DNA from: an uncultured bacterium
Lineage (GTDB): Bacteria > Cyanobacteriota > Cyanobacteriia > Synechococcales > Synechococcaceae
DNA: 25,361 nt
Direction: 5' to 3'
NCBI GenBank assembly: GCA_964481495.1
Contig: CAYZUY010000009.1
Span: 4,323-29,683, forward strand
Shown here: positions 2,047 to 12,855 of the stretch, piece by piece
Layout: each line of letters begins with the position of its first letter
Position numbering within the stretch: the stretch's first letter is position 1
Notes under the pieces: model-generated
What the model saw: only the letters and a program-made list of their open reading frames with translations
What the model was told of the DNA's origin: nothing
The model's database searches: none
Position numbers and translations under genes: made by a program

Positions 2047-2553
2047 ATGTCCCGTTCCTCTCTGCCACGGCGGCGTCTGCTGCATGAACTGGGCCGCTGT
2101 CTGGGGGCAGGCCTGGGGCTGGCGATCGCTCAACCCTCACCGGCCCAGGCAGCCTACCCCGTCAGCTACCCGGATGCGGTCTGGAAACAGCGGCTCAGTC
2201 CCGCAGCCTACGCTGTGCTGCGCCAGGAGGCGACCGAGCGCCCCTTCACCAGCCCCCTCTACACCGAGAAGCGCCGGGGCATCTACCATTGCGCCGGTTG
2301 CGATCAACCCCTGTTCCGCTCCCGGGACAAGTACGACAGCGGCACCGGCTGGCCCAGCTTCAAACAGGCGATCGCCGGGGCCCTGGGCACCAAAACCGAC
2401 TTCAAACTGATCCTGCCACGCACGGAATACCACTGCAGCCGCTGTGGCGGCCACCAGGGCCACGTTTTCGATGACGGCCCACCGCCCACGGGCAAACGCT
2501 ACTGCAACAATGGTGTCGCTCTGCGCTTCCGTCCCGCCGCCAATCAGGGCTGA
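2047..2553 (+). CDS. msrB: Peptide-methionine (R)-S-oxide reductase MsrB with twin-arginine signal
   Basis: TERPF, CAGC and CSRC zinc pairs, KYDSGTGWPSF, GHQGHVFDDGP, RYCNNG. Start placed at ATG 2047, which gives the leader SSLPRRRLL...AQA. Confidence 0.93.
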   Translation: MSRSSLPRRRLLHELGRCLGAGLGLAIAQPSPAQAAYPVSYPDAVWKQRLSPAAYAVLRQEATERPFTSPLYTEKRRGIYHCAGCDQPLFRSRDKYDSGTGWPSFKQAIAGALGTKTDFKLILPRTEYHCSRCGGHQGHVFDDGPPPTGKRYCNNGVALRFRPAANQG

Positions 2554-3461
2554 TCCGGATCCAGGGAGGGGGGTGGCTCGGCTTCCAGTGCCAGGGGCTC
2601 CCCCGTGATCGGATGGGGCAGCTGCAACCGCCAGGCATGAAGGTGGTAGCCGCAGTCTCCGGGCACCGCTGCGATGCCGCGGGGTACACCGCCAGGCCCG
2701 TAGAGCGGGTCCCCCAGCAGCGGATAGCCCAGACTGGCCAGATGGACGCGGATCTGGTGGGGGCGACCGGTGGCGATCGCCACCTCGACCAGGGTGCGGT
2801 CGGCCCAGCAACGCCGCACCGTCACCTCGCTCAGTGCCGGTTTACCTGCCGCCGAGGCAGCATGGATCGTTCCCAACTGGGGATAGGCGACGGGACCGAT
2901 GGGCTGGGTCACGGTCAGCTGCGGCGGCAGATCGGGAGCCGGACCGATCAGGGCCAGATAGGTCTTGTGAATGCGGCGATCGCCCGCCGTCCCCGCCCGC
3001 ATCCAATCGCTGAGCACCGCCCGGGCCCGGCGGCTGCGCGCCAGCAGCACTAGCCCCGAGGTGCCCCGCCCGAGGCGATGGATCGGGTAGGGCGTGTCCT
3101 CGGGAAACTGCCGCTGAAGTTGGTGCAGCAGGGTGTGCTCCAGAAAGCCGCCCCCCGGCAGCACCGGCAGACCCGAAGGTTTCTCGACCACGATCAGGTC
3201 CTGATCCGCGTGACAGAGGTGGAAGTCCAGGGGCACCGTCGGTTCCTGCCAGGGCGGCCGATGATAGCTGAGCTGCTGCCCGGGCTGGAGACGGGTCTCC
3301 GGTGTTGCCCGCTGATCATCGATCCGAACCTGACCGGCCTCGATCCGGGCCCGCCACTCCTCTCGGTCGGAATGACGGTAGCGATCGCCGTAGAACTCCA
3401 GCAGGGTGCAGCCCGTAGCGGCGCGATCCACCCGATCCCGATAGACCCAGCCCTGGTTCAC
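2544..3461 (-). CDS. RluA-family pseudouridine synthase-like protein with S4 domain; catalytic Asp absent
   Basis: S4-like N-terminus, EKPSGLPVLP, IHRLGRGTSG, TGRPHQIRVH, LGDPLY, LHAWRL. GTG at 3461 has GGAG 5 nt upstream and overlaps the upstream gene's TGA. Confidence 0.88.
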   Translation of the reverse strand: MNQGWVYRDRVDRAATGCTLLEFYGDRYRHSDREEWRARIEAGQVRIDDQRATPETRLQPGQQLSYHRPPWQEPTVPLDFHLCHADQDLIVVEKPSGLPVLPGGGFLEHTLLHQLQRQFPEDTPYPIHRLGRGTSGLVLLARSRRARAVLSDWMRAGTAGDRRIHKTYLALIGPAPDLPPQLTVTQPIGPVAYPQLGTIHAASAAGKPALSEVTVRRCWADRTLVEVAIATGRPHQIRVHLASLGYPLLGDPLYGPGGVPRGIAAVPGDCGYHLHAWRLQLPHPITGEPLALEAEPPPSLDPDQP

Positions 3462-4120
3462 GGCCACTCCTGATCCCGAGCTGCCACCAGACAGGCCTGC
3501 ACCTCGGCATCCTCTGTCTGGTCGAAGCGGACATACCAGAGCCCAACCGCCTCCAGGGGCCGGGGCTCGAGCAGCGCCACGAGGTCATCCACCAGGGGTC
3601 GCAGCCGCCGGGCCACCCCGGGATCGATCACCGGCACCGCCACCACGATCCGGGCGGGCTGCTGCTGGCGCAGGGCGGCGATCGCCGCCCGCAGGCTGGC
3701 ACCGGTGGCCACGCCGTCATCCACCAGAATCACCGTGCGGCCGAGCAGGGAGAGCAGGGGGCGATCACCGCGATAGACCGACAGGCGTCGCTGCAGTTCC
3801 GCCTCCTCCCGTGCCGTCACCCGCGCCAGCGCTGCCTCGCTGATCTGCAGATCTGCCACCAGCGCCTGATCGAGCCAGCGGATACCGCCGGGGGCGATCG
3901 CTCCCATCGCCAGTTCCTCGTGGCCGGGCACCCCCAACTTGCGCACCAGCCAGACATCCAGGGGCAGATCCAGCGCCGCTGCAATTTCGGCACCCACCGG
4001 CACTCCGCCCCGGGGCAGGGCCAGCACCCAGGTGCGGGGGGATCGCCGATAGTCTGCCAGCGCCTCGGCCAGCAGCCGACCAGCCTGACGGCGATCCGTG
4101 AATCGGGACAGGGAAGCCAT
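3458..4120 (-). CDS. Phosphoribosyltransferase-family protein
   Basis: FTDRRQAGRLLA, ALPRGGVPVG, VRKLGVPGHEELAMGAIA, PRPP-binding VILVDDGVATGAS, WYVRFDQTEDAEV. ATG 4120 has GGAGG upstream. Confidence 0.9.
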   Translation of the reverse strand: MASLSRFTDRRQAGRLLAEALADYRRSPRTWVLALPRGGVPVGAEIAAALDLPLDVWLVRKLGVPGHEELAMGAIAPGGIRWLDQALVADLQISEAALARVTAREEAELQRRLSVYRGDRPLLSLLGRTVILVDDGVATGASLRAAIAALRQQQPARIVVAVPVIDPGVARRLRPLVDDLVALLEPRPLEAVGLWYVRFDQTEDAEVQACLVAARDQEWP

Positions 4121-7794: not shown

Positions 7795-8067
7795 ATGAAT
7801 AAAGGTGAACTGGTCGATCAGGTTGCCGTTCGCACCGGCCTGACCAAAGCCCAGGTGTCGGCGGCCATCGATGCCACGCTCGATACCATCATCGAATCCG
7901 TCGTCAGCGGTGAAAAGGTGTCCATTCTCGGCTTCGGCGCCTTCGAGTCCCGCGAGCGTTCCGCCCGTCAGGGTCTCAACCCCAAAACCGGCGAAAAGAT
8001 CAAGATTCCTGCCAAGAAGGTGCCTGCTTTCACCGCTGGCAAGCTGTTCAAGGATCGCGTCAAGTAA
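7795..8067 (+). CDS. hup: Histone-like DNA-binding protein HU
   Basis: MNKGELV..., GFGAFESRERSARQGLNPKTGEKIKIPAKKVPAF. Start moved to ATG 7795. A TATGAT -10-like hexamer lies at 7756-7761. Confidence 0.96.
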   Translation: MNKGELVDQVAVRTGLTKAQVSAAIDATLDTIIESVVSGEKVSILGFGAFESRERSARQGLNPKTGEKIKIPAKKVPAFTAGKLFKDRVK

Positions 8068-8410: not shown

Positions 8411-10972
8411 CTAACCGGCGAAGATATCCAGCTGGCCGCTGTCGGCCGCCCGCTGGCGGCGCCGGGGCTGGGGCAGCGGCGGCAGATCCGGCGTCTGTCC
8501 CTTGCGCAGGCCGACCGCAATGCGGCTGTGCTGCTCGATCTGCCCCATCACCTGCCGGGCCCGCTCGATCACCGTGGCGGGCAGACCCGCCAGCCGCGCC
8601 GCCTCGATGCCGTAGGAGCGGTCGGCACCGCCCGCCTGCACCTGATGCAGGAAGACGATCCGATCCGGCAGTTCCTTCACCGTCACCTGGAAGTTGGCGA
8701 CGTTGCTCAGCAGCGAGGCCAGCTCATTCATCTCGTGGTAGTGGGTGGCGAAGATGGTGCGGGCCCGCAGCTCCGCCGCCAGATACTCGGCCACCGACCA
8801 GGCGATGGAGAGACCGTCGAAGGTGGCGGTGCCCCGGCCGATCTCGTCGAGCAGCACCAGAGAGCGATCGCTGGCGTGGTTGAGGATATTGGCCGTCTCG
8901 TTCATCTCGACCATGAAGGTCGACTGGCCCGTCGCTAGGTCGTCCACAGCCCCCACCCGGGTGAAGATGCGATCGCAGATCCCCAGCCGGGCCGAGCGGG
9001 CGGGTACGAAGCTGCCCACCTGGGCCATCAGCTGAATCAGTCCCAACTGCCGCAGGTAGCAGCTCTTGCCGCTGGCATTGGGACCGGTGAGCACGATCAG
9101 GTCCGGGGACTCGGCACTGCCCTCACCCAGCTGGGCGCCATTGGGCACGAAGAAGCCGCTGGGCAGCGACTGCTCCACCACCGGATGGCGGCCGTCGGCG
9201 ATCGTAATCCCGCGATCCTCGGTCATCTCCGGGCAGCAGTAGTTCTGGTAGACCGCCACCTCCGCCAGACCCGCCAGCACATCGGCGGCGGCGATCGCCT
9301 GGGCCACCCGCCGGATTGCCTCGGCCTCGGCGCCAACCTCGTCCCGCAGGGCCGCGAAAATGCTGTATTCCAGCTGGTTGAGATCGCTCTGGACACTGAG
9401 GATGCGCGACTCGCGCTCCTTCAGATCCGGCGTGATGAACCGCTCCTCATTGGTCAGGGTCTGGCGGCGGATGTAGTGGTCGGGCACCTGGGCCGCCTTG
9501 GCCCGGCTGATGCTCAGGTAGTAGCCGAAGGTCTTGCTGTAGCCCACCTTGAGGGTGGTGATCCCGGTGGCGGCCCGTTCACTGGCTTCCAGGTCCGAGA
9601 TCCACTGCTCGTCGTCCTCGACCCGCTGGCGCAGGGCATCCAGTTCGGGGCTGACTCCCGCCCGGATCAGGCCCCCCGTGGTGAGGTAGGGCGATCGCGC
9701 CTGGGCCGCCAGCGCCGCCAGTTCCGGCAGCTTCAGCAGCGAGTCCGCCAGGGCAACGAGATCACGGGCATTGGCCGTGCCGGACCCCGCCCGTCCGGTC
9801 AGCCGCTCAAGGTCGTAGATCTGCTTGAGCAGAGCCCGCAGTTCCTGGCGCAGCCAGCCATCGTCCACCAGTTCCCGGATCGTCTGCTGGCGGGCCTCAA
9901 TCCCCACTCGGCTGAGCAGGGGCTGCAGCAGCCAGCGGCGCAGAGCCCGCCCCCCCATCGTGGTGACGGTCTGATCGAGAGCCCAGAGCAGCGACCCGTG
10001 GAAGCTGCCATCCCGCTGGGTCTGGGTGATCTCGAGATTGCGGCGGGTCTGGTGGTCGAGCACCAGATACTCGCCCAGATAGTAGGTGCTCAGGGGCAGC
10101 AGCGAGACCGGCGTTTCCTTCTGGGTCGCCTCCAGATACTGCAGCAGTCCCCCCGCCGCCCGGATCGCCAGCTTCAGGGTCTCGCAGCCGAAGCCTTCGA
10201 GCGATCGCACCCGGAACCGTTCCTGCAGCCGCTGGCGCGCCTCCACCGGATCGAAGGGTGTCTGGGGCCGCAGCGTGTAGCAGAACTGGCGCGGCAGAAA
10301 CTCCGGCAGGTAATCGCTCGGTTCACCGGGGCGCAGCAACCCCACCCGATCCGGGCTCGACACCGGGAAGAGTACCTCCGAGGGCTGCAGCCGGTAGAGC
10401 TCCTGCACCAGCACCTCCAGACCCTCGTGCTGGCTGGTGAGGAATTCGCCGGTGGAGATGTCGGCGATCGCCAGCCCCCACTGCTGCCCCGACCAGACCA
10501 CCGCCGCCAGATAGTTATTGCGGCGGGCGTTGAGCATTCCCTCCTCGAGGATGGTGCCGGGGGTGATGATCCGGGTCACCTCCCGCTTCACCAGCCCCTG
10601 GGCTTGGGCTGGGTCCTCCACCTGATCGCAGATGGCGATCGCGTAGCCCTTCTCCACCAGCTGAGCACAGTAGCGATCGAGGGCATGGAAGGGGATGCCC
10701 GCCATCGGCACCCGACCAATCTCCTTGCCCGCATCCTTACTGGTCAGCACCAGCTCCAGTTCCCGGGCCACGGTGATCGCGTCCTGGAAGAAGCATTCGA
10801 AGAAATCCCCCATCCGGTAGAGGAGGATCTGCTGCAGATGCTGGTCCTTCACCTCCGCCCAGTGACGCATCATCGGCGTCAGAATCTCCGGCGGCACCTG
10901 ACGGTGATCGGCATAGCGAACTTCGTGCTTGGCCAGGCGTTCCGGCAGGCCGGTTTCGGCGGGCGAGGTCAT
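8411..10972 (-). CDS. mutS: DNA mismatch repair protein MutS (MutS1), with an apparent internal in-frame deletion
   Basis: GDFFECF mismatch-binding motif, [16 protein letters not shown], Walker [37 protein letters not shown]. Confidence 0.96.
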
Positions 10973-12600
10973 GGTGCAGGGGGTAGGCCGTAGGGCCAGC
11001 GGTAGGGCTGAACCATCTTCTCAGCCCGGTAGACGCGGATGCGCATCACCACCTCCCCGTTCCGGCGCAGGGGCAGCTCCGTCAGGTAGGTGAGGGACCG
11101 GAACAGCGGCGTGAGTTCCCGCAGACTGTTGCCCTGGAGCTTGGCCGTGGTCAGGAACAGACCCGAGCGTCCCAGCCAGTCCTCGGGCCGGGACCAGAAG
11201 GCGAAACCGCGCGGGTCCTGACTGAAGGTGGTGATCGGCAGTCGCCGGATCGGGTCGAGGCCGAGGGCGTACTGACCCGCCAGCATGTAGTCGTTGGTGA
11301 ACAGGAAGTCGCTGCGCTGCAGCACCGCCATGAACTGCGGGTTGGCCCGGGCCGCCGCCGTCAGCCGCTCCGGCGGAAACAGCTCGACGGAGGTGTCGCA
11401 CTGCACCGGCAGCAGCTGCCACCAGGGGCGCGGCGGCGGCTGGCAGCCCCCCGGCGGCTCCAGGGTAAGGGCGGGCAGCAGGGTGCGGGTGCCGGGCACC
11501 TGGGCAACGCCGTCGCGGATGTGCAGAACGGCCAGGGTGCCGAGTCCGCCGACCAGCGCAGCGGTGGAGCCCAGCCAGAGAATCAGACCACGCCGATGCT
11601 GCTGGCCCCAGTCCGCCGCTGCCACCCCCAGCAGGGGCAGCAGACTCCAGTAGCCGGGCATCGGCCAGGAGGGCAGCACCCGCATCTTGCCGCCGAGCAG
11701 GGTGAAGCCCACCGCAATCGGCAGACCCAGCCAGAGCAGCAGTGCCCGACGATCAGCCTCGTCCGGGCGGTAGCGACCGCGCACCAGACCCAGCACATTG
11801 CCGACGCTCACCCAGGCCAGGGGCAGGCTGATCGTCGGGAAAAGCATGCCCCAGTGTTCACCCAGCAGCCCCAGCACCCGCAGCAGGTCGTAGCTTTCGG
11901 GAGTGTTCACCCGCCCGCCCTGGAATCGGAAGGAAATCCAGTCGTGGTGGATATTCCAGCCCCAGAGAGGGGCGCTGGTGAACGCGGTGGCAGCCAGGGC
12001 CGCCAGCAGCCAGGGGCTGGTGACCAGGCCCCGGAAGCGGGGTCGGGTCAGGCAGAAGCCCAGGACGCCACCGCCCAGCAGCAGCCCGTAGTACTTGCCC
12101 AGGGTCGCCAGACCCAGCAGCACCCCGAAGCCGACCATCCAGGGGCCAGGGCGGACCGGGCCGGAGCGTCCGAAGCAGCGCTCTGCCAGCAGCCACATCC
12201 CCGCCGACCAGAACAGCATCAGCGGGCCGTCAGGCTGGTCGAGAATCCCGAAGACCGCGAACAGCACCGGTGTCAGGGCCGCCAGGGCCACGGTCATCAC
12301 CCCGGCCCGGTCGCCGAACAGCCGCCGCGCCGTCAGGCCCAGCATCACCTGGGAGCCACAGAACATCAGCAGGGTGGCCAGCCGCAGGGTCAGGGGTGTC
12401 GCCACCCCGGTCAGGGCCGGACCCAGCGCACTGCCGATCGCCACCCCCAGCGGGTGGTCGAAATAGCTCCAGTCGGGGTGGTGCGTGTAGAGGTAGTAGT
12501 AGGCTTCGTCGTAGCCCGGAGGCAGCAGGACGGCGATCGCCAGCCGGAAGAGCAGACTGCCGATCACCCAGATCAGCGTCCAGGACCAGAAACGGTTCAA
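10969..12600 (-). CDS. GT39/ArnT (PMT-like) membrane glycosyltransferase
   Basis: [26 protein letters not shown], many TM helices. Start uncertain; TTG 12600 has GGAG upstream. Its stop overlaps the mutS ATG (ATGA). Confidence 0.88.
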
Positions 12601-12855
12601 GCGGGTCTCTCCTGCGGGGACGGCTGCGGCAGATCCGGCCCGGGCCAACGCTTTCCAACCCCTGCCGCCAACACTGCTTTCACGAGTTTGTGGGATGATG
12701 GCGGGTACGGTCCACCTCTCAGGTGTACCATAGGGCGAATTTTCCCCCTGAAAACAATTTCAGGGTCTGCCGGTCTGCTCCGCCCGCGGTTTCAGAACCC
12801 CGGCAGAGGGTGTATCGGTTCTGTCCATCTGCTGCTTTCTTGGGAGAACGAGACG

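Follow-up and report, generated by a model that had tools for sequence, protein, structure and literature searches.

Natural mutators defective in mutS are well known among isolates of E. coli, Salmonella and Pseudomonas aeruginosa, and natural mutators in general are well documented in pathogens and far less so in free-living phototrophs. Repeat-mediated slippage within mismatch-repair genes is a known source of mutator alleles in Salmonella (PMC2955026), where the 6bpΔmutL allele as well as candidate repeats in both mutL and mutS have been described for Salmonella Typhimurium (Chen et al., 2010, PMC2955026). For cyanobacteria, knockout of mutS in Synechococcus elongatus PCC 7942 raised the mutation rate about 10-fold, as determined by rifampicin-resistance frequency (PMC9985602). 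The taxonomic family of the genome studied here also includes S. elongatus, given that its protein P0038 agrees residue for residue with the MutS of genome G003 across the aligned stretch, and the ΔmutS strain therefore provides the expected size of effect (~10-fold) for a mutS lesion within this family.

The mutS gene analyzed here resembles the Salmonella slippage alleles in that a short direct repeat lies within a mismatch-repair gene and an in-frame stretch has been lost, which in Salmonella yields a defective allele and a mutator subpopulation. Unlike the tandem-repeat switches of Salmonella, its repeats lie 87 bp apart, the 77-bp spacer is lost as well, and the phenotype is a predicted one; since the spacer is gone, the change is not reversible by slippage, and reversal would need recombination with a wild-type allele. 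Whereas the S. elongatus ΔmutS strain is a complete knockout, the allele described here keeps 824 of 853 expected residues and may be only partly defective. Like the natural mutS mutators, it appears as a strain-level lesion in an otherwise wild-type species, a young and rare allele; unlike the clinical and laboratory mutators with measured rates, it is a single allele from an environmental freshwater cyanobacterial genome bin, known from its sequence. It thus probably represents an ordinary and known kind of event, found here in an environmental cyanobacterium.

The window, that is, the whole 25.4-kb stretch of DNA that was analyzed, carries mutS on its minus strand at positions 8411-10972 as an open frame of 853 aa encoding a MutS1-type mismatch repair ATPase. 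All five Pfam domains (MutS_I, II, III, IV and V) scored above cut-off with full or nearly full profile coverage, and the closest solved structure found in a PDB search was E. coli MutS (E = 6e-181). The Phe-X-Glu mismatch-binding motif in domain I (GDFFE, residues 55-59) and the Walker A (GPNASGKS, residues 630-637) and Walker B (LVLLDE, residues 705-710) motifs in domain V were all found, and their positions are invariant in the homologue alignment. The core domain III is incomplete, being devoid of a 29-residue helix and S-P-P loop element that precedes the lever helix. The genome bin containing the window consists of 301 contigs totaling 2.39 Mb, with 84% completeness and 4.3% contamination, and the sole other MutS match within this 84% complete bin is a MutS2-like gene with 31% identity.

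Several features of the genomic surroundings were recorded in passing. A 559-aa ORF on the same minus strand (10969-12648) overlaps the mutS start codon by 4 nt, and its counterpart in the sister species carries the Pfam domain PMT_2 (glycosyltransferase family); in the sister species, the region downstream of mutS encodes a small protein of 65 aa, an HU-like protein and a purE-like one. The mutL gene of the window's genome (G000) is divided over two contig ends, C235 (end) and C158 (start), as open frames of 402 and 180 aa (loci L034 and L033), an arrangement that suggests a fragmented assembly and not a disrupted gene. In the bin of the sister species (G001, 88% complete), no MutL_C match was found.

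Comparison with homologues showed that the stretch from SPYL to TTGG is shorter by exactly 29 residues (87 nt) in the window MutS, and thereby confirmed the original prediction that about 29 core-domain residues are absent from a protein whose frame is intact and whose gene otherwise looks complete. The match to E. coli MutS splits into two parts, query residues 31-422 and 425-822, with approximately 30 E. coli residues skipped, and the counterpart of the absent segment, counted along the alignment, is about Q391-V419, again 29 residues. When MutS was searched in 30 related cyanobacterial genomes, the match was broken at or near query 428-452 wherever this region was reached; in a MAFFT alignment with MutS of 26 related cyanobacterial genomes and six database homologues, a 29-column gap appeared in the window protein only. 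Among 121 database proteins, the interval from SPYL to TTGG is 39 residues long in 120, compared with 10 in the window protein, and six positions of the segment (L433, Q434, L440, L443, P455 and P456 in the sister numbering) are 98-100% conserved in the 120 homologues. The original prediction had described a helical segment of about 29 residues ending in a PP motif at this place in cyanobacterial and E. coli MutS.

At the DNA level, the window mutS and that of the sister species (L002) are 92% identical, with proteins 95% identical outside the gap, and their alignment shows a single clean 87-nt gap with the 46 nt upstream identical. Two samples of the sister species, represented by L002 and by the ENA contig L031 (99.7% identical to each other), retain the segment. 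Over the 10 kb collinear with the sister species, this is by far the largest indel, the next largest being 20, 12 and 9 nt; the 20-nt and 12-nt ones lie at window positions 8065 and 8103, just downstream of mutS.

Most 31-mers of the mutS region occur in each of at least 17 public metagenome runs, which come from nine studies. Contigs of four of these runs (X1, X2, X6 and X8), each from a different study, were aligned to the window mutS. The long contigs of the four runs are 99.1-99.6% identical to the window and are therefore conspecific with it. Those of X2, X6 and X8 are split in the alignment into a piece that stops at 9687 and a second one that begins at 9678. Between the pieces lie 77 letters without a match, and these together with the 10-nt overlap add up to an 87-nt insertion relative to the window. 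A 434-nt contig of X1 matches up to 9687 and then continues for 130 letters, which is consistent with the same insertion as 77 inserted and 53 matching letters that end 30 nt into the next contigs. The junction of the window was absent among the contigs listed from all four runs. The 87-base deletion is thus private to this assembly, and other populations of the species keep the segment.

The two pieces of the X2, X6 and X8 contigs overlap at identical boundaries, namely window positions 9678-9687 (minus strand), which mark the deletion junction and hold the single retained copy of a 10-nt direct repeat (ACCTCACCAC on the coding strand) that extends from within codon Y429 through L430 and T431 into T432. 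The mismatches of X8 record 25 are all explained by listed differences, at 9331, 9335, 9393 and 9506 for one piece and at 10112 for the other, hence the 10-mer is exact at both ends of the extra 77 letters, and by the same mismatch accounting it is likewise exact in the upstream pieces of X2 and X6. From the coordinates and mismatch counts, we infer that the full-length conspecific allele has a perfect pair of ACCTCACCAC copies 87 bp apart. The sister species has just ACCTG (5 nt) at both ends of the segment, so the 10-bp repeat is specific to the window's species.

Slipped-strand mispairing and RecA-independent short-homology deletion both classically yield this outcome, in which one repeat copy disappears together with the spacer. 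Among the options raised by the original prediction, an 87-nt microhomology deletion is accordingly the one that gained support, as the conspecific contigs carry both the 77 nt and the second perfect repeat copy. Slipped-strand mispairing or a microhomology-mediated deletion between the two ACCTCACCAC copies would have removed one copy and the 77-bp spacer, and this points to an in vivo origin. The proposed event would be a strain-specific, in-frame deletion of 87 bp, and a recent one, because the rest of mutS is intact and shows purifying selection. We therefore lean, with somewhat better than even confidence, to a recent strain-specific slippage deletion that left a probably defective mutS and a moderate mutator.

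The first alternative to be weighed is that the organism has a full-length mutS and that the 87 nt were lost in assembly, by bubble-popping, in polishing or through a chimeric library molecule. In its favor are the fragmentation and contamination of the bin, whose assembly is the single source of the allele; in addition, the exact window protein has a single entry in the protein collection, and the junction was absent from the other contigs and runs compared. A search of the indexed public runs with 100 nt centered on the junction (7 sampled words) reached 4 of 7 words at best, a value at which 16 runs from at least nine studies tie, and we read the three missing words as the junction-spanning ones. 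When JGI metagenome contigs were scanned for exact copies of a 32-nt flank that both species conserve, no match was obtained, and the nearest JGI-sourced protein to the window MutS, among the matches listed, is ~70% identical. Contigs encoding the exact window protein were absent from the record, and a protein search for short conspecific fragments with a 201-aa piece returned matches of at most 62% identity only.

Against this, 12 single-base differences set the window apart from all four runs. These private differences indicate that the indexed runs do not include the strain or sample from which the window stems, so that the absence of the junction elsewhere is uninformative on whether the assembly is correct and silent on the window's own reads. 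Furthermore, de Bruijn assemblers are not known to use word sizes below about 21, and as the 10-nt repeat is shorter than these words, a graph collapse is not expected and an assembly collapse is mechanistically unlikely. In addition, a deletion that takes out precisely one repeat copy and the spacer, in frame, is what slippage in vivo classically yields. For the assembly collapse that the original prediction had offered, as for an artefact of any such kind, we keep a small but appreciable chance; the allele itself is probably real.

To evaluate what the deletion may mean for MutS function, we compared AlphaFold2 models of the full-length sister protein and the window protein. In the sister model, residues 431-459 comprise most of a short helix (428-434), a 13-residue helix (438-450) and a V-D-S-P-P loop. 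Directly after this segment comes the long lever helix (471-498), which runs on to clamp domain IV. Across the segment stretch of this full-length model, the block-mean pLDDT is 82-95. The core-domain pLDDT is 72-95 in the full-length sister protein versus 34-67 in the window protein, modeled on nearly the same alignment, and residues 412-439 of the window model fall below 50; because overall model quality is low (mean pLDDT 55 and 65), we used the core-domain contrast alone, and AlphaFold confidence is no measure of stability. The MutS_III score decreases from 180 bits in the full-length sister to 165 bits in the window protein, and the mismatch-binding, connector, clamp and ATPase domains lie outside the deletion.

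The loss of near-invariant residues together with the lower predicted confidence of the core suggests impaired mismatch repair. A shortened core would impair folding or the coupling between DNA binding and ATPase activity, and the strain would then be a mismatch-repair hypomorph or null and so a moderate mutator. Such an outcome appears likelier than a neutral one, because both the length and the residues of the segment are strictly conserved from E. coli to cyanobacteria.

A second alternative, which we consider unlikely although it retains some weight, takes the deletion as real and functionally tolerated, with a core that folds, mismatch repair near normal and the allele a neutral polymorphism. 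The intact frame and the retention of all catalytic and DNA-binding motifs would agree with it, as would the mostly synonymous differences from the conspecific contigs and the retained mutL, open though divided over two contig ends. However, a length change at this place was found in none of the 120 homologues and none of the 29 relatives, nor in E. coli, and the six segment positions named above are nearly invariant. The fall in predicted core-domain confidence likewise argues against tolerance, and the allele went unseen in the other conspecific populations compared, as is the case for a short-lived deleterious or hitch-hiking variant.

The remaining coding sequence bears on the age of the event. 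Of the 40 listed differences from the conspecific contigs, 32 are synonymous and eight are not. Changes derived on the window branch number six in mutS, of which a single one, A527V, is non-synonymous, and five of the six are G:C to A:T, too few to judge. Private amino-acid changes in MutS amount to 12 in the window lineage and seven in the sister lineage, a comparison that reveals no acceleration and could hardly detect an event at strain level. In these comparisons, no sign of decay of the remaining mutS or of a mutator history was detectable. Such a lack of signs would be expected for a young event, for which few traces are foreseeable, and the intact frame without decay fits a very recent event and a tolerated variant as well.

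Elsewhere in the window, an RluA-like pseudouridine synthase (2544-3467, minus strand) has HRLG in place of the catalytic HRLD, with the motif near 3055-3083. The RluA-like protein of the sister species (G001) has the same IHRLGRGTSG, the two proteins being 80% identical. As a candidate mutator lesion of the strain, this substitution was rejected, because it is common to the sister species and thus a genus-level trait.

Codon T432 (9677-9679, minus strand) overlaps the retained repeat copy. In the alignment of 120 homologues, the position that Thr occupies here is acidic in 97%, with E in cyanobacteria (E461 of the sister protein) and D421 in E. coli. As X8 record 25 matches window positions 9507-9687 without any difference, T432 is present in full-length conspecific contigs and is a species trait that did not arise through the deletion. 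Relative to the sister species, each repeat copy lies within a small cluster of substitutions, 5 of 6 nt at the upstream copy, as deduced for the full-length allele, and 4 of 14 nt at the downstream one. Judging from the sequence, a single templated event might have created the 10-bp repeat. A more far-reaching possibility, to which we give little credence, is that two unusual substitution clusters, one of which exchanged the 97% conserved acidic residue for Thr, made the perfect repeat pair a fragile site at the species level, which recurrently yields Δ29 mutator subclones, one of them abundant enough among the freshwater cells in nature to become the assembled consensus. If this reading were true, a free-living picocyanobacterium would possess a built-in mutability switch that is reversible by recombination.

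A lineage-specific short MutS fixed in the species or genus, the third option of the original prediction, has the window itself as its sole support and can be dismissed with near certainty, as the gene is full-length in two samples of the sister species and in conspecific contigs of three or more studies, and the segment is present in every relative compared, so that the gap is not common to close relatives.

A role for HIP1 in the deletion was also considered. The HIP1 octamer GCGATCGC is indeed located at 9691-9698 (no strand assigned), within the codons for A-R-S of ARSPYL and 3 nt from the retained repeat copy (9678-9687), as the original prediction had stated; its suggested link to the deletion was not supported. 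The same octamer stands at this place in the full-length sister allele L002, whose 87 nt contain no second HIP1 copy. HIP1 sites are moreover frequent: the window contains 37, seven of which lie in mutS, where shuffled sequence would give 1.15 for the whole window, and by arithmetic from the site list ~8% of mutS positions lie within 10 nt of one. HIP1 was therefore rejected as the cause of the deletion, the site being ancestral, shared with the full-length sister allele and outside the repeat pair, and its nearness to the junction appears coincidental.

Annotation pipelines will call this mutS intact despite its missing conserved core element. The mutS of this bin is atypical for its species, which calls for caution when the bin is used in mutation-spectrum, recombination or phylogenetic work. 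If real, the allele would be a cleanly defined natural mismatch-repair variant, whose progenitor allele and mechanism of origin are both readable from public data.
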